A stretch of 55,383 nt of DNA from assembly GCA_020061515.1 (NCBI GenBank), contig JAGUYC010000050.1:1-55383 (forward strand), read 5' to 3'. Position 1 is the stretch's first letter. Every line of letters starts with the position of its first letter. The position numbers and the translations under genes were made by a program. The notes under the pieces were generated by a model. It did no database searches and was not told the origin of the DNA. It saw only the letters and a list, made by a program, of their open reading frames with translations. Source of the stretch: Gemmatimonadota bacterium (GTDB lineage: Bacteria; Orphanbacterota; Orphanbacteria; Orphanbacterales; Orphanbacteraceae). This document shows positions 15,782 through 54,165 of the stretch, one piece after another.

Positions 15782-15899
15782 TGGTATAATCCTCGAGAGA
15801 TTCGGGAGATACGGTCTTCTCTTCGGCGCTCGCGGCGGGATGAGAAGGCTCCCTCCCGCTTGCCGCTCCCCGAACGTTCGTCCGAAAAGGAGAAAGCTC

Positions 15900-31253: not shown

Positions 31254-31977
31254 CTCCTGCTCCCTTTCCTTCTTTCTCTCGGCCGGTTTCCGGTTTTTTG
31301 GACGCCGCGGTGATCTCGCAGGCAACGCAAGGCTCCATGTAGCACATCATGTCCTCGAAAGGTTCCTTCTCGAGGCAGGGGGGGCTCAGGTTCGCGCATC
31401 CGCCGCAGATCGCCTTGTCCGGATCGGTGTACGTGCAGCGGAGCTGGCAGGCCGGGCACACGTAGATGCAACCCCCGCACAGCCGGCAGACTTCGGAACG
31501 GATGTCGAACGGCGTCCCGATGGTGCGTGTCTCGCCGCGCCCCCGGAAGCCGATCGCCTTCGCCATCATCTGTTCCTCGCACATCCGCACGCACAGCCCG
31601 CACATGATGCAGTCCTCATGTTCCTGTCGGAAACGCTGGCGGCGGATGTTGTGCGCGGAAGCCAGATCTTGGATAACCTTCGACTGCGGACAAGAGGCCA
31701 AGAGCAGCTCGAGGATGACCTTGCGGGCCCTCACGACGCGGGCAGACGAAGTCCTCACCTTCAGCCCCTCTTCGGCCGGATAGGTGCAGGAGGTCACCAG
31801 CTTCGCTCTCGGACCCTCGCCGATCTCGACCACGCAAAGCCGGCACGCTCCGTAAGGCGAAAGCCCCTCCATGTGGCACAAGGTCGGTATCGGAAAACCA
31901 TAGAAACGGGAAACCTCCAGGAGGGTCGTGCCCTTCTCGACCGATACCGACAAGCCGTTGATGTTCAGCGTGATCAC
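31231..31977 (-). CDS. 2Fe-2S plus 4Fe-4S iron-sulfur protein (NuoG/HydA N-terminal-like)
   Basis: GTG 31977 lies 8 nt after AGGAGG and overlaps the upstream stop as GTGA (31974-31977), giving (M)ITLNINGLSVSVEKGTTLLEV… Motifs: CHMEGLSPYGACRLCVVE (2Fe-2S) and CIMCGLCVRMC and CRLCGGCIYVCP (4Fe-4S). The 3-prime end overlaps the next gene by 23 nt. Confidence 0.8.
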   Translation of the reverse strand: MITLNINGLSVSVEKGTTLLEVSRFYGFPIPTLCHMEGLSPYGACRLCVVEIGEGPRAKLVTSCTYPAEEGLKVRTSSARVVRARKVILELLLASCPQSKVIQDLASAHNIRRQRFRQEHEDCIMCGLCVRMCEEQMMAKAIGFRGRGETRTIGTPFDIRSEVCRLCGGCIYVCPACQLRCTYTDPDKAICGGCANLSPPCLEKEPFEDMMCYMEPCVACEITAASKKPETGREKEGKGAGDAIEDIL

Positions 31978-34900
31978 GCGTATTGCCTCCTGGCTTCGGA
32001 CACCGATTCCTCCTCCTCCTTCGGCCTGGTGAACTCGAGGTCGCAGCGGAGGCACCGGTGCGCCTCACGGCTCGCTTCCTCGGGGGAAAGGGACACTTCC
32101 ACCTCGGCGAAGTTCCTCTTTCGCCACGCCGCCGCCGCGCGCGGCGTCTCCGTCCGTCCGCCCTCCTCTGCGCCCTCTTCGAGGGGAGCCGCCGGCTCGA
32201 TGTAGATCCTCGGAAGGACCGGCTGCGCGGGCTCGAGAAGGATCGCGCCCCGAACGTAGCGATCGATCATGATCGCCGCCTTCTTCCCCGCTGCGATCGC
32301 CTCCACCACGGTGTTCGGTCCGGTCACGAGATCGCCCGCGGCGAAGACGCCGGACCGGTTGGTGAGGAGCGTTTTCGGATCCACGCGCACCGTGTTCTTC
32401 TTGGTGATCTCCACTCCGCTCGAAAGCGCGGGGGAGATCGTGTCCGCTCCCGAGTCCTCGCCGATGGCGACGACCAGGGTATCCAAAGCGATCGTGTGCT
32501 CGGTTCCCGGAAGAGGAACCGGGCGCCGCCTTCCGCTGGAGTCGACCTCGCCGAGCTCGTTTCGAACGCACTCGACGCCGACGAGCCGCCCGCCTTCCGA
32601 AAGCACGCGAAGAGGCGTGACGAGCGTCTGGATCGCGATCCCTTCCTGCTCCGCCGCCTCGACCTCCTCCGCGAACGCGGGCATCTCGTCTCGCGTTCGG
32701 CGGTAGAGGATCGTGACGCTTTCGACGCCGTCCAGTCGGAGCGCCGTTCGGGCGGCGTCCACGGCGGAGTTGCCCCCGCCGATCACCCCGACGCGGCCCT
32801 TCGCCGGCTTCGTCCCGCGGAGGTTGAAGGCCTTCAGGAACTCGATCGACGGATGAACGCCCGCGACGTTCTCGCCTTCCAGGCGAAGGGGAACGCTCCT
32901 GTGCGCGCCGATTGCCAGAAGCACCGCACCGTAGCCGTCCTTGATCAGTCCGTCCACGTCGATGTCGCGCCCGAGGGCGACTCCGCACTCGATGCGGATG
33001 TTCTCGTTGAGGAGCGCGTGGATCTCTTTCTCGATGACTTCCCTCGGCAGGCGGTAGGGCGGGATCGCGCAGTAGAGCATGCCGCCCGGCCTGTCTTCCG
33101 CCTCAAACACCGTGACCTTGTAACCCTTGAGAGAGAGATGGTGGGCGGCGGTGATGCCCGCGGGCCCCGAACCGACGATGGCGACGCGGGGCGGTTCCCC
33201 GTCCTCCCAAACCGCCGGGGTCGGCCGGCAGATCGAAGGATCGGTGCGGTCGGTGATGAAGCGTTTCAAGGCGCGGATCGCCACCGCATCCCCTCCGGTC
33301 GCGCCCGCCACGCATCTTTCCTCGCACGGATGATGGCAGACACGCGCGCAGACCGAAGGGAACGGGTTCGTCTCCCGGATCGCGCGGTAGGCTTCCTCGT
33401 ACTCGCCGCGAGCGATGTGCGCGACATAGCGCCACGCCTCCGTTCCGAGGGGACACGCGGCCTGGCAGGGAGCCCCGACAAGCGGCCGGCAAACGAACGC
33501 ATCGCACTTCTTGTCGACGACGTGCCGCAGGTACTCCTCGCGGAAGTATCGCAGCGTGCTGAGCACCGGGTTCGGAGCCGTCTGGCCGAGTCCGCACATC
33601 GTGGTGTCCTTCACCACGTGCGCCAACTCCTCCAGAAGATCGATGTGCTCGAGCGTTCCCTTTCCCGAGGCGATGTCCTCGAGGATCTCGTACATCCGCT
33701 GCGTCCCCTTGCGGCACGTGAAGCACTTCCCGCACGATTCATCCTTCAAGAAGTTCATGAAGTACTTCGCCACATCGACCATGCACGTGTTCTCGTCCAT
33801 GACGATCATCCCGCCGGAGCCCATGATGGTTCCTGCTTCCGCCAGGCTGTCGTAGTCGATGGGGAGGTCGAACTTGTCCGCGGGAATGCAGCCGCCCGAC
33901 GGTCCACCCGTCTGAATGGCTTTGATCCTCGCCTTGCCGGAAGGGCCCCCTCCGATCTCGTAGACGATCTTTCGGATCGTGGTCCCCATCGGGACTTCCA
34001 CGAGGCCCGTGTTCTTGATCTTTCCGACGAGGCTGAAGATCTTCGTTCCGGAATTGCCTTTGGTTCCGATCTTCGCGAACTCATCCGCCCCGCGCCGGAT
34101 GATCAGCGGAATGTTCGCCCAGGTCTCGACGTTGTTGATCGCGGTCGGCCTCCCGCCGATTCCTCTCTGAACCGGGAACGGAGGACGCTGGCGAGGTTCA
34201 CCGATCTTCCCTTCGATCGAACGGATGAGCGCGGTCTCCTCACCGCACACGAACGCGCCCGCCCCCTTGACGATGTCGATGTCGAACGAGAACGTCGTGC
34301 CCAGGATCTCCCGGCCCAAAAGCCCATACTCGCGGGCCTGTCTCAGGGCGATGATCAGGTGCTTGATCGCGAGCGGGTATTCATTCCGCACATAAACGAT
34401 CCCCTTTGTTGCTCCCGTTCCGTAGGCCCCGATGATCATCCCCTCGATGATGCTGTGGGGATTCCCCTCGAGGATGCTCCGGTCCATGTACGCGCCCGGA
34501 TCCCCCTCGTCCGCGTTGCACACGAGGTACTTGCCGCCGTCGACCGGTTGCGCCGCGAGAAGCTCCCATTTCCTCCCCGTGGGAAACCCGCCGCCCCCAC
34601 GCCCGCGGAGCCCGGACTTCTTGACCTCCTCCACCACCCACTGCGGGCTCCCGCTCGCCAGCGCCTTCTCGAGAGCGGCGTATCCTTCCTCCGAGATGTA
34701 GTTGTTGATTCGAATCGGATCGACCTTCTGTCCCATCTCCAGCAAACTGCGCTTCTGATATTTGAAGAACGGAATATCGTCTTGTCGGTAGTACTTCCGT
34801 CCGGATTGGGGATCCTGATAGACCAGCTCATCCACATGCTCTCCGACAAGGGCGGCATCGATGATGCGCGGCACGTCCTCCAGCCGCACCTGAGCGTAGA

Positions 34901-35159
34901 AGGCTCCTGCGGGCTCCACCAGAACGAAAGGACCCATCTCGCAGTCCAGGATGTCCCCCCCCGTGATGGTGAGGGCGATCTTGTCCTGGATACCCCTGGT
35001 CATGATGTGTCGCTTCGCGACCCGGATGATGCCGTTCGAGCCGCACGCTTGGCAGGCGGTCCCCGCGCACAGAACGACGCGAAGCCTGCCCGCATCCACG
35101 TCATAGCGGAGAATGCCCCGGAGTCTCTTCAGATCGTCGATGGAAGCCAATCTCGGCAT
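31974..35159 (-). CDS. Fusion flavoprotein: NuoF/HydB-like NADH-FMN module fused to GltD/NfnB-like FAD-NAD(P)H oxidoreductase
   Basis: 1061 aa. N-terminal thioredoxin-like region VLCAGTACQACGS. NuoF signatures GRGGGGFPTGRKW, CGKCFTCRKG, MCGLGQTAP. GltD-like Fe-S region CQAACPLG…CARVCHHPCEERC. Two Rossmann motifs: VAIVGSGPAGITAA and VGVIGGGNSAVDAA. Confidence 0.9.
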   Translation of the reverse strand: MPRLASIDDLKRLRGILRYDVDAGRLRVVLCAGTACQACGSNGIIRVAKRHIMTRGIQDKIALTITGGDILDCEMGPFVLVEPAGAFYAQVRLEDVPRIIDAALVGEHVDELVYQDPQSGRKYYRQDDIPFFKYQKRSLLEMGQKVDPIRINNYISEEGYAALEKALASGSPQWVVEEVKKSGLRGRGGGGFPTGRKWELLAAQPVDGGKYLVCNADEGDPGAYMDRSILEGNPHSIIEGMIIGAYGTGATKGIVYVRNEYPLAIKHLIIALRQAREYGLLGREILGTTFSFDIDIVKGAGAFVCGEETALIRSIEGKIGEPRQRPPFPVQRGIGGRPTAINNVETWANIPLIIRRGADEFAKIGTKGNSGTKIFSLVGKIKNTGLVEVPMGTTIRKIVYEIGGGPSGKARIKAIQTGGPSGGCIPADKFDLPIDYDSLAEAGTIMGSGGMIVMDENTCMVDVAKYFMNFLKDESCGKCFTCRKGTQRMYEILEDIASGKGTLEHIDLLEELAHVVKDTTMCGLGQTAPNPVLSTLRYFREEYLRHVVDKKCDAFVCRPLVGAPCQAACPLGTEAWRYVAHIARGEYEEAYRAIRETNPFPSVCARVCHHPCEERCVAGATGGDAVAIRALKRFITDRTDPSICRPTPAVWEDGEPPRVAIVGSGPAGITAAHHLSLKGYKVTVFEAEDRPGGMLYCAIPPYRLPREVIEKEIHALLNENIRIECGVALGRDIDVDGLIKDGYGAVLLAIGAHRSVPLRLEGENVAGVHPSIEFLKAFNLRGTKPAKGRVGVIGGGNSAVDAARTALRLDGVESVTILYRRTRDEMPAFAEEVEAAEQEGIAIQTLVTPLRVLSEGGRLVGVECVRNELGEVDSSGRRRPVPLPGTEHTIALDTLVVAIGEDSGADTISPALSSGVEITKKNTVRVDPKTLLTNRSGVFAAGDLVTGPNTVVEAIAAGKKAAIMIDRYVRGAILLEPAQPVLPRIYIEPAAPLEEGAEEGGRTETPRAAAAWRKRNFAEVEVSLSPEEASREAHRCLRCDLEFTRPKEEEESVSEARRQYA

Positions 35160-35199
35160 GCTAGCACCTCCGCCGGCCGGCGAACACGCGCCGGATCCG

Positions 35200-36177
35200 T
35201 CAGACCAAATCGAACATGTGGTTCTTGCAGCCGCGGCGCGAACAGATCTGAAGCATTCCGCCTCCGCGGACGATCATCGCCACCATCGGCGCGCCGCAGT
35301 CGGTACAAACCGTCGCGCCCGCGATCTCCGCATGACAATGCGGACAGAAGAAATTCACGATCGTGTCCTTCGGAATCGGGTCCTCCGATTCGACCGAGTA
35401 GCTGCCGTAGAGACTCGACAGCCGCAGCCACCCGTGCTTGTCGGCGAAGGCTGCCGTCACTCGAATCGACGGATGCCCGTCGAGCAGCCTCTCGGGATCC
35501 ATGAAGCTGTGGTTGCACCGCGGGCAGCTGGTTTCGAGCGGGAAGACGCGAATGTCCGTCTCGGCGTCGACCGCGTCCAAACCGGTCTTCGACTTGTCGA
35601 TGATCGACCGAACCTTGGACGCGTTCACCTTCGAAAAGTAGTGGCCGTCGACGACGGCGACCGGGCCGAGAGCGCACGCCCCGAGGCAGTTCACGGTGTG
35701 GAGCGTGAACTCCTTGTCCGCCGTGGTGTCGCCGGCCTTCACGTCCAGCCGCTCCTCGAACTCCCGGGCGACCGCCTGCGCGCCGCGGACATGGCACGCG
35801 GTTCCGAGGCAAACCGAGAGGAGATGCTTCCCTCGCGGCTTCAGGCTGAACGACTTGTAGAAGGTCGCCACGCCGTAGATATCCACGAGGGAGCGGCCCG
35901 TTCGTTCGGCGGTCAGGTTGAGGGCGTGGCGCGGAAGATAGCCGTATTTCGCCTGGACCGCCTCGAGGATCGAGATGATCCCCCCGTGCGCCGATCCGAA
36001 CTTGTCGATGATCCCCGCGAGCGCGCTCGGACGAATCCCCTCGAACTCGTCGCACTCGAAGCGCGGGGAACCGAACGACCTCAAGTACTCGCAGGTCTCC
36101 AGATGGAGACACGTTGCGCACAGCCCCTCCCCCTTGTCGGAAAGGAGCGCCTCCTCGCCTTTCTCCGCTCGGTTCAT
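35200..36177 (-). CDS. NuoE/HydC-like thioredoxin-fold 2Fe-2S protein with N-terminal 4-Cys module and C-terminal Cys-pair (zinc-ribbon-like) domain
   Basis: Internal ATG 36177 lies 1 nt after the upstream stop. N-terminal GLCATCLHLETCEYLRSFGSPRFECDEFEG. NuoE core CLGTACHVRGA…CLGACALGPV. C-terminal CPRC…CPHC…CTDC…CSRRGC. Confidence 0.85.
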   Translation of the reverse strand: MNRAEKGEEALLSDKGEGLCATCLHLETCEYLRSFGSPRFECDEFEGIRPSALAGIIDKFGSAHGGIISILEAVQAKYGYLPRHALNLTAERTGRSLVDIYGVATFYKSFSLKPRGKHLLSVCLGTACHVRGAQAVAREFEERLDVKAGDTTADKEFTLHTVNCLGACALGPVAVVDGHYFSKVNASKVRSIIDKSKTGLDAVDAETDIRVFPLETSCPRCNHSFMDPERLLDGHPSIRVTAAFADKHGWLRLSSLYGSYSVESEDPIPKDTIVNFFCPHCHAEIAGATVCTDCGAPMVAMIVRGGGMLQICSRRGCKNHMFDLV

Positions 36178-36178
36178 T

Positions 36179-36484
36179 TCAGCAATACTCCTCGCAGTGC
36201 CACACACCTCCCTCCGGCTTGGGATAGGTGCAGGTCGCACGGATCGCGCAGTTCTTGCAAAGGCCCTTGTACTTGGTTTCCGCTTCCTGCGGGCTCGGCG
36301 GGAGAGCCTCTTTCTCTTCCTTCGACGAAGAACTCTCAAGGGATCCCACGCGCTCCTCCACGCAGCCCAACACTCCTTCGTGCTCGTCGCAGTAAAAGAG
36401 AGGAGGGCCGAAAAGCTTCAGATAAGAACATGTCTCGGCGTTGTCGCAGGTCGAGCAAATCCCCAGAGGACGTGATGTCTCCAT
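36179..36484 (-). CDS. Small cysteine-rich protein, two copies of the CX2CX5CX11-12C[DE]E module
   Basis: 101 aa from internal ATG 36484; the rest of the listed 294-aa ORF is Arg/Gly junk overlapping 36568..36948. Modules GICSTCDNAETCSYLKLFGPPLFYCDEHEG and GLCKNCAIRATCTYPKPEGGVWHCEEYC. The motif recurs in frame in neighbouring genes, which supports coding. Confidence 0.6.
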   Translation of the reverse strand: METSRPLGICSTCDNAETCSYLKLFGPPLFYCDEHEGVLGCVEERVGSLESSSSKEEKEALPPSPQEAETKYKGLCKNCAIRATCTYPKPEGGVWHCEEYC

Positions 36485-37280: not shown

Positions 37281-38627
37281 CTACGTGGCTTCTTGCTTTT
37301 TCTGCTTCTCCCGCAGCGTCTTGCGGTCAATGCCGAGGATCTCCGCCGCTCGGGTCTTGTTTCCCCCGACGCTCGCCAGCACGTTCCGGATGTGCTCCGC
37401 CTCGACCTCCGCCAGAGTCCGGTCCACGCCGGACCCGCGCACCGCCGAGAAGCGGAGATACGGAGGGAGAACGGGAACGTCGATCACGTCCCCTTCGGTC
37501 ATCACCACCAGCCGCTGCACGAGGTTTTCCAGCTCCCGCACGTTGCCCGGCCAGTGATACCGCTTGAGCACGCGGAGCGCCCCGTCGGTGAAGCGCGGAA
37601 CCGGCTGGTTCAGCTCCTTCGAGAACTTCGTGCCGAAATGGTTGATGAGAAGAAGGATGTCGTCTCCCCTCTCGCGCAGGGGCGGAACGGTGATCGTGAT
37701 GACGTTCAGGCGGTAGAAGAGGTCCTCGCGGAAGGAGCCTTTCTTCACCAGCCCGAGGAGGTTCTTGTTCGTGGCCGCGACGATCGCGACATCGACTTTC
37801 CTCGGCCGGCTGGTGCCGACCATGCAGATCTCTTTGGTCTGAAGAACACGGAGCAGCTTCACTTGCATCGACGCGCTCGTCTCGCTGATCTCGTCGAGGA
37901 AGATCGTTCCTCCTTCGGCGGTCGCGAAGAAGCCCGCCCGCGACTCGGACGCGCCCGTGAACGCTCCCTTCACGTAGCCGAAGAGCTCGCTCTCGAGAAG
38001 CCCCTCCGGAATCCCGCCGCAGTTCACCGGAACGAAAGGCGCCGAGGCTCTCGGGCTCTCGTAGTGGATGGCGCGCGCGACCAGCTCCTTCCCCGTCCCG
38101 CTCTCGCCGGTGATGAGGACCGTCGCGGGTGTCCTTGATGCCTTAACGATCGAGTGAAACACCCTGCCCATCACGTCCGACTCTGCGATGAGCCCCTGGG
38201 GACCGGCCGGCTTCGCGCCTGCGCCCGTTCGCGCGCCCCTCCGCGTGCGCAGTCTGTCGAGCCCGCGGCGCACGGCCGTGAAGAGCTCCTCGTCGGTGAA
38301 GGGCTTGGGAAGATATTCGGCCGCCCCGGCCTTCATGGCCTCGACCGCTCCCTCGACCGAGGCGTATCCGGTGATCATCACGATCTCCGTGTCCGCGAAG
38401 TTCTCCCGCACGTGGCGGACAAGATCCGTTCCCGTGATCTTGGGCATCTTGTAGTCCGTGATGACGAGATCGACGGGCGTCTCCTCGAGAATCCGGATCG
38501 CTTCCTCGACTCCCGAAGCCGAGAAGACCAAGTACCCTTGCGCGGTGAGGTTTCTCCGGAGCACCTCGACCGTCACGGGGGAATCGTCGACCACCAGGAT
38601 TCTCTCTTGCTTCTCAGGCTCCGGCAT
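37281..38627 (-). CDS. Sigma-54-dependent response regulator (NtrC family: REC-AAA+-Fis HTH)
   Basis: Receiver domain ILVVDDSP…DLVITDYKMP. AAA+ Walker A GESGTGKE, plus ESELFGYVKGAFTGA (GAFTGA loop). C-terminal HTH NKTRAAEILGIDRKTLREK. Start is ATG 38627 (best SD spacing) or 38636; the listed start 38786 lies inside the kinase gene. Confidence 0.9.
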   Translation of the reverse strand: MPEPEKQERILVVDDSPVTVEVLRRNLTAQGYLVFSASGVEEAIRILEETPVDLVITDYKMPKITGTDLVRHVRENFADTEIVMITGYASVEGAVEAMKAGAAEYLPKPFTDEELFTAVRRGLDRLRTRRGARTGAGAKPAGPQGLIAESDVMGRVFHSIVKASRTPATVLITGESGTGKELVARAIHYESPRASAPFVPVNCGGIPEGLLESELFGYVKGAFTGASESRAGFFATAEGGTIFLDEISETSASMQVKLLRVLQTKEICMVGTSRPRKVDVAIVAATNKNLLGLVKKGSFREDLFYRLNVITITVPPLRERGDDILLLINHFGTKFSKELNQPVPRFTDGALRVLKRYHWPGNVRELENLVQRLVVMTEGDVIDVPVLPPYLRFSAVRGSGVDRTLAEVEAEHIRNVLASVGGNKTRAAEILGIDRKTLREKQKKQEAT

Positions 38628-40305
38628 TCTCGTCATCCTCTCTCGCGGGCTCCGGCCCCGCCGCCGGCAGACGAACCTCGAACCGGGATCCTTCTCCGAC
38701 CTGGCTGAAGACCTCGATTCGGCCTTGATGGCCCGCCACGATCCCCTGGACGACCGGCAAGCCGAGCCCCGTCCCCTCGTCGACATCCTTGGTCGTGAAG
38801 AAGGGGATGAAGATCTTCTCCATCGTCTCCTCGCTCATGCCGATTCCGGTGTCCTCCACGACCAGGCGGATGTGATCGCCCTCCGCGAGCGTGCGAACCG
38901 TCAGACGCCCGCCGTCCGGCATCGCTTGCAGGGCGTTGACCACGAGGTTGACCAGGATCTGGCTCATCTGCGCGGGGTCGGCTTCGATCAGGGGGAGATT
39001 CGGCGAAAGCTCGCGCTCAAGCTCGACGCCGCCCTTCGAGCAGCGCGCCTCGAGGAAGTAGAGGCCCTTCTCGACGACCTCGTTCAGATCGACCGTTCCG
39101 CTCGTGACCGGCGCTTGGCGCGCGAATGTCATCAACTTTCGAATCACTTCCCTCGAATGAAGGCACGCGTCCACGATCTTTCGAAGATCTCCCGCGAGAT
39201 CGCTCGGAAGGGCCGAGTCCTTCTCGGCCAGCTGGGCAAGGCCCAGGATGTTTCCGAGAGGCTCGTTCAGCTCATGCGCCACGTGCGCGGCGAGCTGTCC
39301 GATCGTGGCGAGACGGTCCGCGTGCCGCAGCTGTTCGTGCAGCTTCGTCCTTTCCTCTTCCACCTGCTTTCGCTCGACGATCAACGCCGTCTGCCGCGCC
39401 ACTGCGTCGATCAGCACGCGCTCCTCCCGAAGAAAGGGCCCCTCGTCGAGCTCCGGCTTCTTCGCCGCGTAGACGACCTGCAGGAAGCCCCTGCTTTGGC
39501 CCCCGACCATGATCGACGCGGTCAGGCTGCGCCCCTCCTCGGGGAATCCGGGCGTGGAATAGACGCTCCGGTCCAGGACGATCTTGGCGAACGTGATGAC
39601 CGGGTATTGCCACGCGGGAGGAAGAAGCTCGACGATTCCCCGAAGGATATCCGCGAGCGAGATGCCGGGCGTCGCGGCGAGATTCGCGATTGCGTAGAGG
39701 CAGGTCAACTCCTTGAGCCGCTCCCTGAGCGCGGCCTGGGTTCGCTGACCGGCGAGGGCGATGCCAAGGTTCCGCGCGAAGCGCGTGTAGAGATCGACCG
39801 TCTCTTGATCGAAGAAGCCCCTTCGCTCGCTCTTGAGAACGAGGAAGCCGGTGTCCTTGTCCGCGACGGGAAGAGGAACGATCGCGATCGAATGGAAGCG
39901 GCCGTCGGATGAGAACCGGCGGAGCCGCGCTTTCTCGCCCTCTTTGCGCGCATCGGCGAGATCCGCTTCCGCGTCGGCGGTCCAGAAGACACTCCCCGCG
40001 AACAGCGCGCGATGCTCCTTGCGAAGAGGAGCCATGTGAATCCGGAACGACTCCCCCGCAACTTGCCGGGACTCGCTCCGGACGTGGCTTCCGTCCTCTC
40101 CGAGCCACAGCTCGACCTCTCGGCATCCGGAGAACTCGATCAGGTTCCCGATCACTTCGTGAAGGAAATCGCTCCTCGAGATCGGACGGTTCGCCTTCTG
40201 GAGAATGCGATGCGACAGATCGCGGAATTCCCTCGCCGTCCGGGCGCCCCGCGGCTCGGGGGTCTCTTCACTCGCCGATTCGTTGCGGCCGTTCTTCGCT
40301 TCCAT
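38614..40305 (-). CDS. Cytoplasmic sensor histidine kinase with tandem GAF-like domains
   Basis: 563 aa with no TM segments. H-box LAAHVAHELNEPL, N-box LVNLVVNALQAM, G1 VEDTGIGM, G2 GTGLGLPV. Overlaps the regulator gene start. Confidence 0.85.
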   Translation of the reverse strand: MEAKNGRNESASEETPEPRGARTAREFRDLSHRILQKANRPISRSDFLHEVIGNLIEFSGCREVELWLGEDGSHVRSESRQVAGESFRIHMAPLRKEHRALFAGSVFWTADAEADLADARKEGEKARLRRFSSDGRFHSIAIVPLPVADKDTGFLVLKSERRGFFDQETVDLYTRFARNLGIALAGQRTQAALRERLKELTCLYAIANLAATPGISLADILRGIVELLPPAWQYPVITFAKIVLDRSVYSTPGFPEEGRSLTASIMVGGQSRGFLQVVYAAKKPELDEGPFLREERVLIDAVARQTALIVERKQVEEERTKLHEQLRHADRLATIGQLAAHVAHELNEPLGNILGLAQLAEKDSALPSDLAGDLRKIVDACLHSREVIRKLMTFARQAPVTSGTVDLNEVVEKGLYFLEARCSKGGVELERELSPNLPLIEADPAQMSQILVNLVVNALQAMPDGGRLTVRTLAEGDHIRLVVEDTGIGMSEETMEKIFIPFFTTKDVDEGTGLGLPVVQGIVAGHQGRIEVFSQVGEGSRFEVRLPAAGPEPAREDDENAGA

Positions 40306-40527
40306 CTCCGCCCCGCCGGCATTCCGCGCGCACCGCCCCGCGGCTCCCGACCTCGCAGCCGTCGCGGACTCGCGAGCGGCTCGTGAGTGCTTTCGCGGTC
40401 GAGAATATCACGCGGGGTCGGATTCGGCCAAGGGAGACGGGCCCCCTCGGGGCGGGCTTTCGCCCGCGCGCGGATTGCGCCCGCGGATTTCTTGCGTTAG
40501 GCTTTCGAAAGGAGGAGGCGCTTACGC

Positions 40528-40758
40528 ATGAAGATCACGATCGAATACTGCGTGGTTTGAAACTACGGCCCTCGCGCCGCCGGTCTGGCGAAGCGCATCG
40601 AGCAGGAACTCGGAATCAAGCCAAAGCTGATCGAGGGGAGCGGCGGGATCTTCGACATCCACGCCGACGGAAAAGAGATCTACGCGAAGTCGAAGACCGG
40701 GAGCTTTCCCGTCGACGAGGACGTGATCACGCGCCTGAAGCGCGTGAAGGTCCGATAG
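40528..40758 (+). CDS. selW: SelW/Rdx-family selenoprotein (CxxU redox motif), in-frame UGA at 40558-40560
   Basis: Not in the ORF track. ATG 40528 lies 9 nt after GGAGGAGG. Translation: MKITIEYCVV-U-NYGPRAAGLAKRIEQELGIKPKLIEGSGGIFDIHADGKEIYAKSKTGSFPVDEDVITRLKRVKVR, stop TAG at 40756-40758. It is collinear with SelW/Rdx proteins (…YCxxUxY…, …GxFEVxVxGxLIxSKKxxGxFP…). A SECIS-like hairpin follows the UGA. Confidence 0.8.
40574..40596 (+). other. Bacterial SECIS-like stem-loop
   Basis: GCGCCGCC-GGUCU-GGCG-AA-GCGC: 4+4 bp stem with an AA bulge and apical loop GGUCU, starting 13 nt after the UGA. The loop resembles the GGUCU-containing apical loop of the E. coli fdhF SECIS as I recall it. Confidence 0.6.
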
Positions 40759-40787
40759 AACTGCTTTTCCCTCTCAGGGTCTTCGTT

Positions 40788-40971
40788 GAGCCCGGATTGC
40801 GCGCGCGTTTCCGTAACGAGGATGCGAAGCGTGAGCCGAGAGGCCGACCGGTACGAGCCGCTCCCGGAAGCGTAGCCCGAGCGCCACGCTCTAGGAAGCG
40901 GCGACGGAAGGGAGACCTCTTGAGGCCACGATTCGCAGCCGCAGTAGGAAACGCGCGCGCAATCCGGGCTC
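40788..40971. repeat. Palindromic intergenic repeat element, copy A (184 bp, perfect 25-bp terminal inverted repeats)
   Basis: Left end GAGCCCGGATTGCGCGCGCGTTTCC (40788-40812) is the exact reverse complement of the right end (40947-40971). The internal core …GAGCCGAGAGGCCGACCGGTACGAGCCGCTCCCGGAAGCGTAG…GGAAGCGGCGACGGAAGGGAG…GCCGCAGTAGGAA is shared with copies at 50021-50200 and 50373-50623. Confidence 0.85.
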
Positions 40972-40973
40972 GG

Positions 40974-42209
40974 TCAGTCCATCCGGTCCGCCACGTGCAC
41001 GGTGAGGTCGGCGAGGCGGTTCGTGTAGCTCCCATATTCGTTGTCGTACCAGCCGAAGATCTTCGCGTGGGTCACGGGAATCCGGACGACCTTCTCCGGA
41101 AGCATTCGCAGGACCTCGGGCTTCATGCCGGGGAGGTTCTCCATGTCGATGTGCACGAAGCCGGTTCTCGTATGCGTCTCGAACCCTTCGATGACGACCG
41201 CTGCGTCCTCTCCGATCATGTCGGTCGAGACGTTCTGCTCCATCGAGAGCTTGAGCAGGCCCTTCTGCTGCTTCTCCGACGCGCGCCGGTAAAGATCGAG
41301 AAGCGCCTCGCGGTTGAAAGTCGGCTGTCCCTCCTCGTCCAATTCCGAGCGCAAGGTCACGTTCAAGATGATGAGCGAAGCAGTCGTCGTCGGGACCCGA
41401 ACCGAATCCGCCATGAAGCCGATCTCGCGCACGACCGGAATCACCTTCTCCAAAGCCGCGGCGGCGTTCGTCGAGGTCAGGATGATGTTGTTCAGGATGC
41501 TCCGGGTCTTTCTGAGGTCCTTCGCGTCCGCCATCGGCACGTTGTCGAGCACCGCCTGCGTGTTCGTCACGGCGTGGATCGTCGACATCGATGCGGTGAG
41601 GATCGTCCGAACCGAGTAGGCGTCGATCAGGGTCTTCATCATGTGGGCGAGCGCGGTTGTCGTGCAGGACGCCGCGGAAATCAGGTGGTGCTTCGCCGGA
41701 TCGTACGCCTCGTGGTTGACCCCGTAGATGAGAACCGCGGAGTCGTCCTTCATCGCCTCGCTCTTCTTCGTCTTGAAGTCGGCGCTGTTTAGGACCTTCT
41801 CCGCGCCGCCGGCGAAGTGCCCTCGCAGCGAACCCTTCTCGTCGTCCTCCGTGCGGTTCGGATCGTTGAACTTCCCCGTGCAGTCGACGACGACGCGCGC
41901 CTCGTTCTCCCGCCACGGAATGTTCGCGGGGTTTCTCTCCTTTCGGAGAATCGTGACCGGCGTATCGTTCACGCGAAGAAGGGACCTTTCCCGGTCCTCG
42001 ATCTTCACGCAAGGCTCCCCTTTCCGCCCATGAAGGAAGTAGTGGAGCGGTCCGTAGGTCGAGTCCTTCTCGATTGTGCGGCAGAAGCCCTCGAGGTCCT
42101 TCCCGACCTCGCGCCCCTGGTTCACGACGACCGCGTCGAAGTACTTCCGTCCCACGTGGTGCCACAACGTCAACTTGCCGATTCGACCGAGAGAGTTGAT
42201 CCCGAGCAC
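40974..42209 (-). CDS. Divergent glyceraldehyde-3-phosphate dehydrogenase-family protein (second paralog)
   Basis: In-frame GTG 42209 preceded by GAGGAAGAAAG gives (M)LGINSLGRIGKL, the [10 protein letters not shown]-type NAD site. Active-site region SAASCTTTALAHMMK, plus STIHAVTNTQAVLD and FGWYDNEYGSYTNRL. About 80 aa longer than the canonical Gap at 53083..54084. The listed N-terminal 78 aa are low-complexity. Confidence 0.75.
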   Translation of the reverse strand: MLGINSLGRIGKLTLWHHVGRKYFDAVVVNQGREVGKDLEGFCRTIEKDSTYGPLHYFLHGRKGEPCVKIEDRERSLLRVNDTPVTILRKERNPANIPWRENEARVVVDCTGKFNDPNRTEDDEKGSLRGHFAGGAEKVLNSADFKTKKSEAMKDDSAVLIYGVNHEAYDPAKHHLISAASCTTTALAHMMKTLIDAYSVRTILTASMSTIHAVTNTQAVLDNVPMADAKDLRKTRSILNNIILTSTNAAAALEKVIPVVREIGFMADSVRVPTTTASLIILNVTLRSELDEEGQPTFNREALLDLYRRASEKQQKGLLKLSMEQNVSTDMIGEDAAVVIEGFETHTRTGFVHIDMENLPGMKPEVLRMLPEKVVRIPVTHAKIFGWYDNEYGSYTNRLADLTVHVADRMD

Positions 42210-42279
42210 CTTTCTTCCTCGCAACGAACGCCTCCCTTCCGCGCGGGCGGACGCCGGGCCGTCTCTCGTCCCGCCGCCG

Positions 42280-45200
42280 TCAGATCTCCGTGATCCTTCG
42301 GGTTTGCTTGACGTCGTGCCGGCCGGCGTACACCGAACCGTCGAATCCGTTGATGCTGATAAAATCTCCGCTTCGAATTTCCTTGTCTCCGGTGGTCGTC
42401 TTCCCCGCTCTCTCGTCGACGTGGAGAGTGCGGCATCCGACAACGCAGGTGCGCCCGATCCGCTGGGCAGCGACCGCCGCGTGGCTCGTAGCGCCTCCGC
42501 GCGACGTGAGAAGGCCGTCCGCGAGGAAGATCATGTGCATGTCCTCGGGCACCGTGTTCGGACGAATCAGGATGATCTTGCTGTCCGGATGCCGCTTCCA
42601 GAGCTCGTTGATGTCCTTCTCGCTGTGAGCAACGCGCCCCGAGAGCGCCCCGCCGCCGACGCCGATCCCCTGCGTGAGATAGCTCTTCTCCAGCTCCGGC
42701 GTCGGGATGAAGGTGGTGACCATGCTCGATTCGGCGGTGATGATGTCGCGCGCCTGGAGAATGTAGAGCGAGGACGCGTCGCGATCCTCGAACGTGAACT
42801 CGATCTCTTGATGGTTGAACCCTCGGACGAGCACCAGATCCTCGGAGATCCGCTGCAGCTCGCCGCAGATCTCCGGAAAGCGCGACTCGAGGGAGAGCGG
42901 CGCTCTCTGGCCTGCCATCTTCCGCTGTTCCTCGGAGATCGGAAAGGTCTCGACGACCCCGCGGACAACGTCCTCCCCCTGGCTCCGGAAGACGAAGTCC
43001 CCGTAGAGCGAGACGCCGCCGCTCTTCTTTCTCGGGTTCCGCGTGAAGAGGACGCCGGTTCCCGAGCGGTCGTCCAGGTTGCCGTAGACCATCGATTGGA
43101 CGAGCACCGCCGTCCCCCAATCGTCCGCGATCTTCATCTCCTTGCGGTAGAGCTTGGCCCGATCCGCGTCCCACGATTGGATCACGCGCTGGATGCAGTG
43201 GCGGAGCTGAAGGAGAGGGTCCTCCACGATCCGCACGCCGTGGTCGAAGATCGCCTGTCGGCACGCGAGAGCCACGGTTCGGATCTGGCTCTCGGTGAAC
43301 GACGCCTTCTTCTCCACCGAGAAACGCTGTTTGTGCTCCTCGAAGAGACGATCGAACACCTCCTGAGGCACTCCGTAGGAGAGCCCCCAAAGCTGAAGGA
43401 AGCGCCGGTAGCTGTCCCACGCCGCCCAAGCGAAACGTGGTTTGCGGGCGAGTCCCTCGGCGATCTCCTCATTCATGCCGACGTTGAGGAACGTGTCGAG
43501 GATGCCCGGCATGGAGATCGCGGAACCGCTTCGCACTGAGAGAAGCAACGGATTGGACGGATCTCCGAATCGCCTGCCCGTCTCCCGCTCGACGCCCCGC
43601 AGATGCCGCTCCATGATCGCGAGGCTGTGCCTCCTGAGGTCGCGAAACGCGACGAGCATTTCCCATGTTCGGTAGACCTCGGTCGTGACGACGAACCCGG
43701 CGGGAACCGGATAGTCGAACCCCGCCATCCTCCTCAGGAACGACGCCTTCTGCCCGCAGAGAATCGAATCCGGTTGCATGTCGTTCCGCGAGAAGAGAGG
43801 CATGTAGCACTTGTCGACGTCGTAGCTCATCAACAGGTTGCGAAGCGGCTTGCTAAAGGTCTCGGCCTCGTAAGCGAGGGTCGACAGAATGCGGGCGATC
43901 AGGTTGTCGAGCGCCTGAAGCGCGAAGCACGAGCTCATCTGGTCGCGGAGGAAGGCCTCGAGCTTGATGTGCGTCCGTTCGCGGTCCGGCCTCGATTCCG
44001 GCGATCGGGGGAGGTAGTGCGGCACGATTCGCTCCGCATCGGTTTCGTAGACCGACACGATCGCCTCCCGAACGATCTCGCGGAGCGTTCGGGAGACGAA
44101 CTGGAAAATATTGATGTATTGATCGATCGTGAGGCTTCCGAGCCTGAGCCCGCTCTCGAGCATGTCGATCCGCGCGCCGAGCCCACGCCCGGAAATCCCG
44201 TCCACCCAGAGCGCCCTCTGAAAGAGAACGAGCCATTTCGTGATCCTACGAAGCCCTCTCGCGGTCAGGTATTGCAGGTTCTCCGCCTCGGCCAGTTCCT
44301 CGAAGAGGACCGTCGCGAGACTCTCGATCCGATACGAAAGCCCGAGCGCCTCGAGCTTGCGGTTGAGGAACCTCCCGTACATGGACGGGATGCCCGCCGC
44401 GATGTGTCTCTTGTGGTAGATGTCCTCGCGCGACTCGGCGGGCGTCGGATCGAGGAGGATCTTCTTCAGCCCCTCGAGAATCTCGACGAGCGTTTCGAGC
44501 GCGGGAAGATGCTGCCCCGCGTTCAGGCTCTCCTCGAGCGCCTCAACCTCCCTCGGATCGACGAGCGACGCCGCCTTCAAGGCGTCGAGAACTCCCCGAG
44601 GGCCGATCCGATACTTCTGGTCGAGAAGCTGGTAGAGGCGAATCGTGAGCGCCGCCTTCTCCCGCGTCTCTTCCGGGATCTCGCCGCACGCCGCGACGAT
44701 CCGACCCGTCTCCTCCTCGCTCTTCAACAGGAGAGACTCGGGGAAACCCTCCTCCTGTCCCGCGAGGGGGACGAACACGCGGGCCATCTCCTCGCGCGCT
44801 TCCGTCTCTTCGAGGACGTGCCCGAAGATCTCGGCGGGGAGATACGCTTTCAGGAGCTCCGCCTCGCCGGTCGCCCAGTAGCGGAGCAGCGCCTCGCTGA
44901 AGCCGATGAGGCGATACGAGCTCTCCACATGGCACTGCTTGCGAAGGAAGTGCACGACCGAATCCCGGCGGCGCCCGATCTCGTCCGCGCGGGTGGAGAC
45001 GCTTCGAAGCTGCCCCTCCGCGCCGATCTCGACGAAGTAGATGGGGAAGAGCCGGCCGAGCTGCTTCACGAGGTTGAACACCGGACGGATGTCGGCGTTG
45101 AGAAGATCGGCCATATCCTTCTGGAACAGATCGGTGTCGCTGATGAAGATCCCGCCGAGCCGAAGGTGGAAGATGAGACCGGCGAGAAGACGTTTCATGC

Positions 45201-46473
45201 GCAAAGGATCGAGCGCGATCAGATCGACCCACATGCGGATGTTCTTCACGTGCGCGGGGTTCGTCTCGAACTGCCAGAGCTCGTTCACCCCGCGGATCTC
45301 GGGCGTCTCGAACCCGTGGTCGAGAATTCGGTCGATCACCTTCTGGATGAGCCGGTCGTCCTTGGATCGGAGGACCTCTTTCGCCACCGTGTGCATGCAG
45401 TCGAGGACGGTCGTGTCGTGCTGCAGCCAACCGCGTCCGAAGCTGTCGAACACGGCGTCGATGAAGCGGTCCGCGTGCGGCCGTTCCTCGAGGCGGAGCG
45501 CGCGCGACAAAGCCCGGTTCACCGAGCGGAGGGCCGGCTCCCGAACCTGTCGCAACAGAGGCGAATCGAGGATCTTGAGGAGAAAGAGAACCTTCCCCGT
45601 GTAGCCCTCCCATCCCTCGTGCGCCCGTTCGACCTCCTCCGCCGCCTGAAGATAGAGGCTCTCGATCCCCGTCTGATCCGGGAGGTCCTCGGCGTCCTCG
45701 ACGAACGCCTCCTCCCGGGGGCGGGCGACGAGCCGAGCGGCGGATGCCCGGAGGCTCTCGTGCGAGAGTCTTCGGAGAGAGGGAAGATCCGCGAGGGCGT
45801 TTCCATCGACCCATGCGATCGGATCAGGCCGAGCGAGCCACATCCGATACGTCTCGCCGAGCGCCTTCTCCGTCGCGGAGAGGACGAGGCCACGATCGAG
45901 GCCGGGGTCGTGCTCGAGCGCGCTCCGCGCAGCTCGCCGGGCCGCGCCGGAGAGACGAGCCGCGTCGTCCGGATTCTTCTCGAACACCCCTTCGAGCCTG
46001 CGGAACGCCTCTTCCAGCACGGGACGGTTCCGCTCGCGCTGCGGCCCCGACTCCTCGAACACCTTCTCGAGATAGCGGAGAAGCGAGCGGAGGGCGTCGA
46101 CGCGAAGATCCGCCGACGCGGTCTTCTCGGCGGCCGCGAAGAAGATCCCGACGATCACGCGGATCGCCTCGTGTCCCTTCTCGTAGGAATTGTGGTAGTA
46201 GAAGCTGCCGGTCGCATAAGGACCGAGCTCGCCGATCACGTGCGGCCAGTTCACATAGGGATGGTTGACCTCTTCAAGAAGAGTCCGGGTCTTCTCGTGG
46301 ACGCCGACCGACCCGCGGGTCGCATCGAGAAGGGCTCCTTGCTCCGTCGGGATCTCCACCTTGGTGGAGGTCCGCTGGAGGTTGATCTCGAGAGCGCTGG
46401 GACCGTTCTTTCGGGATTCCATATCGGGTTGATTCGGTTCGAGTTCCGCCTTCGCGCCCAAAGATAGCACCAA
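42280..46473 (-). CDS. Large PPDK-like dikinase: ~880-aa helical N-terminal region + ATP-grasp nucleotide-binding domain + phosphohistidine swivel domain, no PEP/pyruvate TIM barrel
   Basis: TTG 46473 lies 8 nt after GGAGG. The C-terminal ~520 aa are collinear with the PPDK N-terminal half: YPVPAGFVVTTEVY, LLLSVRSGSAISMPGILDTFLNVGMN, GTAVLVQSMVYGN, GVLFTRNP, GEDVVRGV, and the catalytic-His motif GGATSHAAVAAQRIG. The protein ends ~60 aa after this His. Confidence 0.8.
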   Translation of the reverse strand: MVLSLGAKAELEPNQPDMESRKNGPSALEINLQRTSTKVEIPTEQGALLDATRGSVGVHEKTRTLLEEVNHPYVNWPHVIGELGPYATGSFYYHNSYEKGHEAIRVIVGIFFAAAEKTASADLRVDALRSLLRYLEKVFEESGPQRERNRPVLEEAFRRLEGVFEKNPDDAARLSGAARRAARSALEHDPGLDRGLVLSATEKALGETYRMWLARPDPIAWVDGNALADLPSLRRLSHESLRASAARLVARPREEAFVEDAEDLPDQTGIESLYLQAAEEVERAHEGWEGYTGKVLFLLKILDSPLLRQVREPALRSVNRALSRALRLEERPHADRFIDAVFDSFGRGWLQHDTTVLDCMHTVAKEVLRSKDDRLIQKVIDRILDHGFETPEIRGVNELWQFETNPAHVKNIRMWVDLIALDPLRMKRLLAGLIFHLRLGGIFISDTDLFQKDMADLLNADIRPVFNLVKQLGRLFPIYFVEIGAEGQLRSVSTRADEIGRRRDSVVHFLRKQCHVESSYRLIGFSEALLRYWATGEAELLKAYLPAEIFGHVLEETEAREEMARVFVPLAGQEEGFPESLLLKSEEETGRIVAACGEIPEETREKAALTIRLYQLLDQKYRIGPRGVLDALKAASLVDPREVEALEESLNAGQHLPALETLVEILEGLKKILLDPTPAESREDIYHKRHIAAGIPSMYGRFLNRKLEALGLSYRIESLATVLFEELAEAENLQYLTARGLRRITKWLVLFQRALWVDGISGRGLGARIDMLESGLRLGSLTIDQYINIFQFVSRTLREIVREAIVSVYETDAERIVPHYLPRSPESRPDRERTHIKLEAFLRDQMSSCFALQALDNLIARILSTLAYEAETFSKPLRNLLMSYDVDKCYMPLFSRNDMQPDSILCGQKASFLRRMAGFDYPVPAGFVVTTEVYRTWEMLVAFRDLRRHSLAIMERHLRGVERETGRRFGDPSNPLLLSVRSGSAISMPGILDTFLNVGMNEEIAEGLARKPRFAWAAWDSYRRFLQLWGLSYGVPQEVFDRLFEEHKQRFSVEKKASFTESQIRTVALACRQAIFDHGVRIVEDPLLQLRHCIQRVIQSWDADRAKLYRKEMKIADDWGTAVLVQSMVYGNLDDRSGTGVLFTRNPRKKSGGVSLYGDFVFRSQGEDVVRGVVETFPISEEQRKMAGQRAPLSLESRFPEICGELQRISEDLVLVRGFNHQEIEFTFEDRDASSLYILQARDIITAESSMVTTFIPTPELEKSYLTQGIGVGGGALSGRVAHSEKDINELWKRHPDSKIILIRPNTVPEDMHMIFLADGLLTSRGGATSHAAVAAQRIGRTCVVGCRTLHVDERAGKTTTGDKEIRSGDFISINGFDGSVYAGRHDVKQTRRITEI

Positions 46474-46599: not shown

Positions 46600-48243
46600 C
46601 TAACGGACGAGAAGCGCGCGCGCCGTCTCGCTCCGCCCACCGGATGTCGCTCGCACGAGGTACAGACCGCTTGCCGCGGCAGCGCCGTCGTCGCTCCTGC
46701 CGTCCCACGGGACTTCCGTCCATCCCGCGCTCGAGGAGCGCCCCTCGAGAACGCGCGCGAGGCGGCCGGCCACATCGAAGATCTCCACCACGTAAGGCCC
46801 CGCCTTGGAGGCGAAGAACTTCACCGTCGTGGTCGGGTTGAACGGGTTCGGCGCAACCGACAGGTCGAGCGACGAGGGAACCGGAACCCGATCCTCCGCG
46901 AGCGCCACGTCGGTGCTCGTCGAGCGGATGAGGGTCATCTTGTACCGCTGGATCAGGCTCCCCGATCCCGCCTTCCGGAAGACCTTGATCATGTAGTCGT
47001 CTTCCGCGGGGAGCGGGAAGTCGGTGAGAACCTCGGTCCCCCCTTTGCCCACCGCGTACACGCTGTCGAGGAGGACCGTCCCGGTTCCGTCATAGAGGCA
47101 GAAGTCCAGATCCAGGATCGAGTCGGTGGCGATCCAGCTCTCGCTTCCACCCTGGTTCCCGAGGAAGTAGCTTGCGCCGATCGGGTCGACCCAGACCGTC
47201 AGGGCGCCGCTCGAGCTGAAGAGGAACCAGTCGACGTCGGTGTTGCGGTCGATCGAGAGCGTGTCGACGACCAGCGTGTCCACAAGCGCACCGAGGGCGT
47301 TTGCCGTCGCGGGCGTATCGTCGTTCTCCCACTTATCGCCGTAGAGCCTCTGTCCGCCGCGGATGTCATCGTCTTGCGGTCCGATGAAGATCGCTCCGCA
47401 GGCGTACGCCTCCATCAGCTTCGTGCAGTTCTCCGGAATCACGTGCCCGAGCCCCATCCCGTGGCCGTGCTCGTGCATCACGACGTTTCTCAAGTTGGCG
47501 AAGTTCCCGGTCGGGACGTAGTAATAGTACACGTCGTCCGTGTCGAGGACCATGTCCCCGCCGTTCGGGTAGTAGTTGTACGCGAGAACGTTCCCCGAAC
47601 CGTCGATCGACCGGCCGGAGAGCCGAACATCGCCGCGGAGGCCGAGCGCGCCGGGCGAGCTCGGGAGAGGAGCGCCGTCGTCCGAAACCTCGATGTAGGT
47701 CGTGCCGAGCACGTCGTCCCATTTATCGAAGGCGTTGCGGATCTTCGTCTGCCAGCCCGTGCTCCCCCAGACCGCGTTGAAGACCGCGAAGAGGTTGCTC
47801 GGACCACCGTCCGCGTTCGTTCCGTCCGGAACGAAGCTCCAGGTCAGCGTGATCGGGTTCCCCTCGGTTCCCGTGCTCCCGTCGGTCACGGTGTAGGACC
47901 AGCGACCCTGGCCGTTGTAGGTCTCCTTTCCCATGCCGAGAGAAGGAACGTAGGTCGGCAGGTTGCGGAGGATCTCCTCGGCCGTCTCCGGGTCGGTATC
48001 GGGATGCAAGCAGAGCGCGACCCCTGGGCCCTCGATGCACTGGAGACCGTTCACGATCTGGTTCACCCCGAGGATCGTCGCTTCCTTAACGATCTGATCG
48101 AACGGGTCGTGCGAGTTCCAGAGATCGGCGAACTCCGGAGACGGAGCCGCCTGGTCGCCCGGAAGCAGCAGGAGGATGGGAACCACGAGGAGGGCGGCCG
48201 CTCCGAGGAACAGGCCGGTCCGGCGTTTGCTGACGAGCTTCAT
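46600..48243 (-). CDS. Secreted metzincin (matrixin/serralysin-like) metalloprotease with PPC-like and T9SS-type C-terminal domains
   Basis: AAGGAGAAAGAGG upstream of the ATG and an N-terminal signal anchor. Zinc site HEHGHGMGLGH (HExxHxxGxxH). CTD LSVAPNPFNPTTTVKF…VEIFDVAGRLARVL…SGLYLVRA. Confidence 0.85.
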   Translation of the reverse strand: MKLVSKRRTGLFLGAAALLVVPILLLLPGDQAAPSPEFADLWNSHDPFDQIVKEATILGVNQIVNGLQCIEGPGVALCLHPDTDPETAEEILRNLPTYVPSLGMGKETYNGQGRWSYTVTDGSTGTEGNPITLTWSFVPDGTNADGGPSNLFAVFNAVWGSTGWQTKIRNAFDKWDDVLGTTYIEVSDDGAPLPSSPGALGLRGDVRLSGRSIDGSGNVLAYNYYPNGGDMVLDTDDVYYYYVPTGNFANLRNVVMHEHGHGMGLGHVIPENCTKLMEAYACGAIFIGPQDDDIRGGQRLYGDKWENDDTPATANALGALVDTLVVDTLSIDRNTDVDWFLFSSSGALTVWVDPIGASYFLGNQGGSESWIATDSILDLDFCLYDGTGTVLLDSVYAVGKGGTEVLTDFPLPAEDDYMIKVFRKAGSGSLIQRYKMTLIRSTSTDVALAEDRVPVPSSLDLSVAPNPFNPTTTVKFFASKAGPYVVEIFDVAGRLARVLEGRSSSAGWTEVPWDGRSDDGAAAASGLYLVRATSGGRSETARALLVR

Positions 48244-50372: not shown

Positions 50373-50623
50373 CTAGCCCGGATTATGCACGCGTTTTCGT
50401 CGCGAGGACGCGGAGCGCGAGCCGAGAGGCCGACCTGGACGAGCCGCTCCCGGAAACGTAGTCTCGGCCTCCCCCCCGGCGCGCTAAGACTTGTCGCTCC
50501 TCGCCGTCGCGACAAGATCCAAGCGCGCCACGGGTCCCTGTTGAGGAAGCGGCGACGGAAGGGAGGCCTCTCGATGCCGCGATCCGCGGCCGCAGTAGGA
50601 AACGCGTGCATAGTCCAGGCTAG
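50373..50623. repeat. Palindromic intergenic repeat element, copy B (251 bp, imperfect terminal inverted repeats, internal insertion)
   Basis: CTAGCCCGGATTATGCACGCGTTT (50373-50396) matches the reverse complement of 50600-50623 at 22/24. The core GAGCCGAGAGGCCGACCTGGACGAGCCGCTCCCGGAAACGTAG … GGAAGCGGCGACGGAAGGGAGGCCTCTCG … GCCGCAGTAGGAAACGCG is nearly identical to copy A. It carries an extra ~65-bp central segment with its own inverted repeat CTTGTCGC…GCGACAAG. The right end overlaps the secG stop codon. Confidence 0.8.

Positions 50624-53082: not shown

Positions 53083-54165
<1,083 letters not shown>

Follow-up and report, generated by a model that had tools for sequence, protein, structure and literature searches.

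A SelW-like (Rdx family) gene with an in-frame UGA codon and a putative SECIS hairpin on a bacterial contig

SelW-like CXXU proteins constituted the most abundant selenoprotein family in the survey of the Sargasso Sea, where 48 such genes were recognized, together with bacterial SECIS elements carrying a conserved G in the loop (PMC1088965). The same family is counted with those bacterial selenoprotein families that possess few Cys homologues in Sec-using organisms (PMC1794560). A redox function has been suggested for these proteins on the basis of the motif, the function being described as unclear (PMC1088965). As for the RNA element, the published model of the bacterial SECIS (bSECIS) asks for an upper stem 4-16 bp long that is closed by an apical loop of 3-9 nt, for a distance of 16-37 nt from the UGA to this loop, and for a minimum free energy (MFE) of -7.5 kcal/mol or lower; one of the first two loop nucleotides is a G, as a rule with G or U behind it (PMC13188914, Fig. 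2 legend).

The locus described here lies in a contig of 55,383 nt, which was analysed over its whole length and is referred to below as the window. It shares with the prokaryotic SelW-like selenoproteins a length of about 75 aa, a CxxU motif placed directly after the first β-strand, a UGA near the 5′ end of the gene followed by a bacterial SECIS with a G in its apical loop, and a scarcity of Cys homologues among close relatives. No structural difference from these proteins was found; the copy in the window differs in its host lineage and in that its public records are unannotated or truncated. The locus is very probably a gene for a 76-residue SelW-like (Rdx) selenoprotein, in which the UGA at codon 11 would be read as Sec by means of the hairpin that follows it (Table 1).

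Table 1. Positions in the window of the selW-like gene, its RNA elements and the surrounding features
Feature	Position	Strand	Basis or remark
Shine-Dalgarno sequence AGGAGGAGG	40510-40518	+	strong; 9 nt 5′ of ATG; read from sequence
SelW-like (Rdx family) gene, predicted selenoprotein	40528-40758	+	76 codons plus TAG; translation, profiles, GC3, 77 orthologues
Start codon ATG	40528-40530	+	
CxxU redox motif	40549-40560	+	Cys8 TGC 40549-40551, Val, Val, predicted Sec11 TGA 40558-40560
Stop codon TAG	40756-40758	+	
Putative bacterial SECIS hairpin GCGCCGCC-GGUCU-GGCG-AA-GCGC	40574-40596	+	MFE structure of the local RNA
Putative SECIS apical loop GGUCU	40582-40586	+	loop begins 21 nt after TGA (spacer 40561-40581)
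GGU of the loop	40582-40584		
Family helix	40576-40581/40587-40592		alignment A1, columns 25-30/36-41
Loop G	40583		alignment A1, column 32
Palindromic element, copy 1	40786-40974		terminal inverted repeats 40788-40812/40947-40971
Palindromic element, copy 2	50373-50623		
Weaker inverted repeat	40319-40331/40466-40485		5′ of the selW-like gene
Terminator-like hairpin and T-run	40469-40485		about 25 nt before the Shine-Dalgarno sequence
Sigma-54 response regulator	37281-38786	-	
GAF histidine kinase	38614-40305	-	
Divergent GAPDH-like ORF	40974-42443	-	up to 489 aa
PPDK-like protein	42280-46473		1397 aa
gap-pgk-tpi-secG cluster	53083-50620		
Canonical type I GAPDH	53083-54084	-	
NuoE/NuoF-like cluster	29661-36339	-	
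MsrB methionine-R-sulfoxide reductase	22211-22831	+	Pfam 'SelR'
PorV/PorQ-like protein and large proteins with T9SS C-terminal sorting or FlgD-Ig tails	10791-11795; 46600-48243; 15762-19907; 27393-29438	-; -; +; +	

The reading frame, its family and its orthologues

The frame spans 77 codons, stop included, and translates as MKITIEYCVV*NYGPRAAGLAKRIEQELGIKPKLIEGSGGIFDIHADGKEIYAKSKTGSFPVDEDVITRLKRVKVR*, the sole interruption being the TGA at codon 11 in the context IEYCVV-TGA-NYGPRA. What the initial annotation had reported of this frame, namely its 77 codons, the strong Shine-Dalgarno sequence with a 9-nt spacer and the single TGA at codon 11, was recovered in the sequence in every detail. Purine-rich Shine-Dalgarno sequences resembling that of the window are also present 5′ of the orthologues in L082, L001 and L002. 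The window has a G+C content of 64.7% and its confident genes a GC3 of approximately 0.8-0.9; the frame resembles them, with a GC3 of 0.84 for the whole frame, 0.80 for the part 5′ of the TGA and 0.86 for the part 3′ of it. TGA is the commonest stop codon of the window, where it terminates 16 of the 32 confident ORFs and is internal to none of them, indicating that the genetic code is standard and that recoding would be specific to the codon 11 site. When both strands were scanned for coding-like frames interrupted by TGA, the selW-like locus was retrieved along with two frames situated inside confident genes of the opposite strand. It is the only such frame in the window outside those genes, and the scan revealed no second selenoprotein gene there.

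For the profile searches, U was replaced by C in the predicted product. The Rdx family of Pfam (PF10262) was matched with an E value of 2e-15 and 57.2 bits against a cut-off of 22.6, residues 2-71 covering profile positions 1-73 of 74, and this match runs across the TGA. The NCBIfam model TIGR02174 (CXXU_selWTH, "SelT/SelW/SelH") was likewise matched above its curated cut-off (48.1 bits against 34.2). The best-scoring NCBIfam model is NF041051 (SelTWH_Campy), a Campylobacter-type SelT/SelW/SelH equivalog, which the protein covers almost completely (69 of 70 positions) but with 73 bits against a curated cut-off of 88, so that the selW-like gene is not a member of this equivalog. Among sequences of known structure, matches were obtained to human MIEN1/C17orf37 (2LJK) and to the bacterial Rdx proteins 2FA8 (Atu0228), 2OJL, 2OKA, 3DEX, 2OBK and 2P0G. 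These Cys-containing proteins are collinear with the window protein over residues 2-73 and differ from it in possessing Cys in place of Sec, in being about 25-30 residues longer and in the distance of the similarity (E values from 2e-7 to 2e-3). The CVVU of the selW-like protein aligns with the CxxC of 2LJK, 2FA8 and 2OJL, and eight homologues (P0007, P0028, P0047, P0060, P0088, P0103, P0108 and P0119) have Cys in the column of the presumptive Sec, with which they would make up a classical Sec/Cys pair. Collinearity with SelW/Rdx proteins, with CxxU at the place of CxxC, had been put forward from the sequence of the window, and the profiles and alignments bear it out. On these comparisons, membership of the predicted product in the Rdx/SelW-like family is confirmed, and a thioredoxin-like fold is expected.

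In order to collect orthologues, one genome per species (GTDB) was scanned with codon 11 left unspecified, and candidates were confirmed by tblastn with Cys in the query. The pattern behind most of the loci, MKITIEYC, stops three codons short of the Sec codon; together with the Cys of the query, this means that the orthologue set is not biased towards TGA. The scan yielded 77 confirmed orthologous loci, spread over more than a dozen phylum-level groups. Candidatus Eisenbacteria provided the closest of them, with 80% and 64% identity; the record titles of others name Verrucomicrobiota, Desulfobulbaceae/Electrothrix, Desulfuromonadales, Gemmatimonadota, Krumholzibacteriota, Planctomycetota, Acidobacteriota, Cytophagia, Fibrobacteraceae, Marinimicrobia, Myxococcota, Actinomycetota, Ardenticatenaceae and several proteobacterial classes. 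TGA occupies codon 11 in all 77, and in all of them the protein frame is conserved 3′ of it; orthologues that simply end at the UGA, which would have spoken against a selenoprotein, were not encountered. The ten codons on the 5′ side (MKITIEYCxx) retain their amino acids across the 77 genomes while varying synonymously. A stop codon kept at one position of a conserved frame over such a range of bacteria is neither a terminator nor a pseudogene lesion nor a sequencing error. Two close relatives, L082 (contig Ga0194125_10000717, with 90% DNA identity to the window) and L001, have post-UGA proteins that are 80-92% identical to that of the window. The closest relatives being metagenome-assembled genomes of Ca. 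Eisenbacteria, the host lineage is probably Ca. Eisenbacteria as well.

The public protein collections present this family in a distorted form. A HMMER search with the 65 post-TGA residues against 1.84 billion representatives retrieved 177 relatives, most of which are fragments of 55-60 residues beginning after the Sec codon. The full-length relatives retrieved mostly possess at the Sec position either a true Cys or a W, the latter in P0004, P0006, P0008, P0012, P0016, P0029, P0033, P0036, P0077 and others. The best explanation of these W entries is gene calling under translation table 4, in which TGA is read as Trp. A word-indexed protein search produced four matches only, all of them fragments or mistranslations. 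At NCBI the nearest protein is P0001, which has 91% identity and is annotated as "Rdx family protein [Candidatus Eisenbacteria bacterium]"; its 57 residues begin with MAKRIE... after the TGA, that is, public annotation truncates the selW-like gene. The truncated and the W-bearing entries are a systematic annotation artefact. That standard ORF callers would miss the gene, as had been suggested from the window, is thus supported indirectly, by this 57-aa relative and by the many library entries that are fragments or carry W.

The hairpin downstream of the UGA codon

The MFE structure of the local RNA contains a hairpin that begins 13 nt 3′ of the TGA and is composed of a lower stem GCGC/GCGC, a 2-nt AA bulge, an upper stem CGCC/GGCG and a loop of 5 nt; the upper stem thus counts 4 bp and is followed by the AA bulge and 4 more bp. 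Folded alone, it has a ΔG of -11.3 kcal/mol, the family mean being -11.0 kcal/mol. With a 5-nt loop that starts with GG, a 4-bp upper stem, a spacing of 21 nt from the UGA and this stability, the hairpin lies within the published bSECIS model on all four counts. The folding stability of the 66-nt stretch that contains it (40555-40620) does not exceed that of shuffled sequences (z=+0.79). In so GC-rich a sequence thermodynamics by itself tells little, and it is to the comparison of genomes that the hairpin owes its support. Rfam gave neither a SECIS nor any other family at the locus, whether the whole window was searched at gathering scores or positions 40400-40900 at E values up to 10.

For this comparison we used a gapless alignment (A1) of 54 nt around the TGA, comprising the window and 76 of the loci; L077 was left out, as its stored sequence ends early. 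The alignment supports a helix common to the family, which encloses the upper stem of the window and in which 88.9% of the cells are paired. Compensatory changes occur in four of its six pairs, with 55 double-changed cells where 11.8 are expected. The covariation score of the helix is 0.355 versus 0.101; none of 500 shuffles scored as high, and all slid registers are far worse. An independent prediction with RNAalifold gave the core of this helix as well. The window and L001 share a variation on this theme: the 2-nt AA bulge and the GCGC/GCGC lower stem take the place of the two outermost pairs of the helix. The covariation cuts across the genetic code: where the G-C pair of columns 28/38 has become U-A, Ser replaces Ala18 and Glu replaces Ala21 at the same time.

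The second nucleotide of the loop is equally constrained. A G occupies this position in all 77 sequences and a U follows it (column 33) in 62 of them. The codon that holds the invariant G encodes Gly, Ser or Arg, and wherever it encodes Gly it is GGT (33 cases) and never GGC, even in GC-rich surroundings. In three of the eight Cys-form homologues the corresponding residue is Asp or Ala, which excludes a G at the second codon position in those forms. Covariation across the code, the invariant loop G and the avoidance of GGC are signatures of selection on the RNA.

The initial annotation had placed the start of the hairpin 13 nt after the UGA, likened its GGUCU loop to that of the E. coli fdhF SECIS and described the whole as SECIS-like. 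The position and the loop are as described; the covariation, the RNAalifold prediction and the agreement with the bSECIS model speak for the SECIS itself, and the likeness to fdhF holds for the apex. The 46 nt that follow the fdhF UGA contain GCAGGUCUGCAC; of 5426 complete E. coli genomes, 5420 have these 46 nt with 100% identity in a gene annotated as fdhF. Both elements are stem-loops embedded in the coding region shortly after the UGA, with an in-frame GGU CUG (Gly-Leu) at the apex and a conserved loop G-U. Counted from the U of the UGA, the conserved GU stands at +23/+24 in fdhF versus +26/+27 in the window, which is one codon further. The stems differ too: that of the window has its 2-nt AA bulge on the 3′ side, unlike the stem of fdhF, which carries a bulged U on the 5′ side.

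Genomic surroundings and the search for Sec machinery

The selW-like gene stands alone, divergent from the genes for a GAF histidine kinase and a sigma-54 response regulator and convergent with a GAPDH-like gene. An all-against-all BLAST of the flanking ORFs of the 77 loci disclosed no partner kept across phyla, and merely lineage-specific synteny and the antisense shadow of the selW-like gene itself; the genomic context consequently gives no functional clue. No selA, selB, selD or tRNA-Sec gene was detected in the 55-kb window with ARAGORN, Rfam and comparisons of about 35 ORFs to NCBIfam or Pfam, the only tRNA gene found by ARAGORN and Rfam being a tRNA-Leu, nor was a tRNA-Sec present in the flanks of the 77 orthologous loci. 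Since 55 kb represent only some 1-2% of a genome, the absence of sel genes from the window says little. A full-text literature search returned no paper on selenoproteins in Ca. Eisenbacteria, the two subjects being mentioned together only in a general review of prokaryotic phyla.

Just 3′ of the selW-like gene, between it and the convergent GAPDH-like gene, is a palindromic element of about 190 nt, which folds into one long, near-perfect hairpin (MFE -122 kcal/mol, z=-8.6) and is bounded by perfect terminal inverted repeats of 25 nt. A second copy, located between tRNA-Leu and secG, is homologous to the first in both arms, has an insertion of 65 nt at the apex and ends in 24-nt arms that are 92% complementary. 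The element is present in L082, the one homologous contig retrieved when metagenomes were scanned with the palindrome arm; three isolated matches of 21-29 nt to an arm had no partner arm and were taken as chance. In the Eisenbacteria locus L001 the two genes are separated by too few nucleotides to accommodate the element, which seems to be absent there. It has no match in Rfam; it looks like a small mobile repeat of the MITE or REP type and could also terminate transcription in both directions. A weaker inverted repeat (fold z=-2.4) on the 5′ side of the gene shares with the downstream element the arm spacing of 134 nt and the GGATTGCGCSCGCG motif, and is possibly a third copy in decay; a terminator-like hairpin with a T-run overlaps its last arm.

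Several other genes of the window deserve mention. The divergent GAPDH-like ORF has weaker Pfam scores and adjoins a PPDK-like protein; a canonical type I GAPDH is encoded elsewhere, in a gap-pgk-tpi-secG cluster. Another cluster encodes a NuoE-like protein (2Fe-2S thioredoxin-like), a 1061-aa NuoF-like protein fused to a GltD-like pyridine-nucleotide oxidoreductase, and 2Fe-2S/4Fe-4S ferredoxin-like and glutamate-synthase-domain proteins, with no in-frame TGA seen; in its make-up it resembles a soluble redox complex linked to NAD(P)H. The MsrB methionine-R-sulfoxide reductase has an N-terminal extension of about 80 residues and, having no in-frame TGA, is not Sec-containing. A PorV/PorQ-like protein, together with large proteins that end in T9SS C-terminal sorting or FlgD-Ig domains, is consistent with an organism of the FCB group that possesses a type IX secretion system.

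Readings of the in-frame UGA and their implications

In the selenoprotein reading, which follows the mechanism of bacterial Sec insertion as summarised in PMC1794560, translation would begin at the ATG behind the strong Shine-Dalgarno sequence, and the hairpin would serve as the SECIS when the ribosome meets the UGA at codon 11. SelB·GTP·Sec-tRNA(Sec), bound to the SECIS apex as the ribosome nears this codon, would deliver Sec, a step that we infer beyond the RNA element itself. The product would be a small protein of 76 residues. Its Cys8-x-x-Sec11 motif may, to judge from the family, cycle between the selenol/thiol and the selenenylsulfide, as in a thiol-dependent oxidoreductase.

We rejected the readings that invoke a pseudogene, an internal start or an alternative code. 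The locus might be a relic of a genuine selenoprotein family, in a host that has lost the Sec machinery and in which the UGA terminates without a functional protein being made; selenoprotein loss is frequent (PMC1794560), and the 55 kb hold neither Sec machinery nor another selenoprotein gene. Such decay is very unlikely, however, for a locus in which the Shine-Dalgarno sequence, the ATG, the CxxU motif, the SECIS stem, the GGUCU loop and the entire downstream frame are intact, where GC3 is that of the host genes, and whose protein is kept in L082 and L001 at the identity given above; the missing sel genes weigh little in so small a part of the genome. A product of about 57 residues, started internally after a UGA that acts as an ordinary stop, is what the entry P0001 proposes, and most of the library relatives were deposited in that 55-60-aa form; yet this is precisely the output expected of gene callers blind to Sec. 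A protein of this kind would be deprived of strand β1 and of the whole redox motif that defines the family, the conservation of MKITIEYCxx as amino acids would go unaccounted for, the strong Shine-Dalgarno sequence precedes the upstream ATG, and the codon of the window equivalent to the internal start is CTG (Leu). We hold the internal start to be highly improbable.

Almost no weight can be given to an alternative genetic code with UGA as a sense codon for Trp or Gly. The W found at the Sec position in P0004, P0006, P0008, P0012 and others agrees with it on the surface, but is better attributed to gene calling with table 4; the use of TGA as terminator, and never internally, in the confident ORFs of the window contradicts it, and it is SECIS-dependent recoding that is marked by such a covarying hairpin, placed immediately 3′ of the TGA and with a loop G that never varies. 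There is finally the thought that the hairpin is a by-product of conserved amino acids in helix α1 (RAAGLA) and has no function as RNA. Sequences of the type RA(A/V)(S/G)LA do occur in Cys homologues as well, and the single-sequence fold is not significant; still, the paired positions change together and alter both residues in doing so (Ala-18 and Ala-21 at columns 28/38), the loop G persists whether the codon stands for Gly, Ser or Arg and is never part of GGC, and the Asp or Ala of three Cys forms is incompatible with it. We therefore judge the by-product reading exceedingly improbable and retain the SelW-like selenoprotein gene with its SECIS as by far the best account of the locus.

The locus is a typical member of a bacterial selenoprotein family known for some 20 years, and its host is the only new element. 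The novelty implied when the gene was initially called hidden is accordingly not supported, SelW-like proteins being a long-known and abundant family (PMC1088965, PMC1794560); with family, motif and SECIS type all established, no new biological question arises. Evenly balanced, in our estimation, is a broader claim: that this is the first explicit evidence for UGA being read as Sec in Ca. Eisenbacteria, that the MKITIEYC subfamily is Sec-only over more than a dozen phylum-level groups, and that the GGU CUG apex, as in fdhF, hints at a very widely shared SelB recognition element imposed on helix α1. The locus also offers a clean example of an RNA structure that constrains the overlapping protein, its stem pairs forcing correlated Ala/Ser and Ala/Glu changes. 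The main value of the finding lies in annotation, since a gene that is missed, truncated or given Trp at its Sec position in public records leaves the selenoproteomes of uncultured phyla undercounted. If the selenoprotein is real, its host, probably a member of Ca. Eisenbacteria, would need selenium and carry the Sec machinery.
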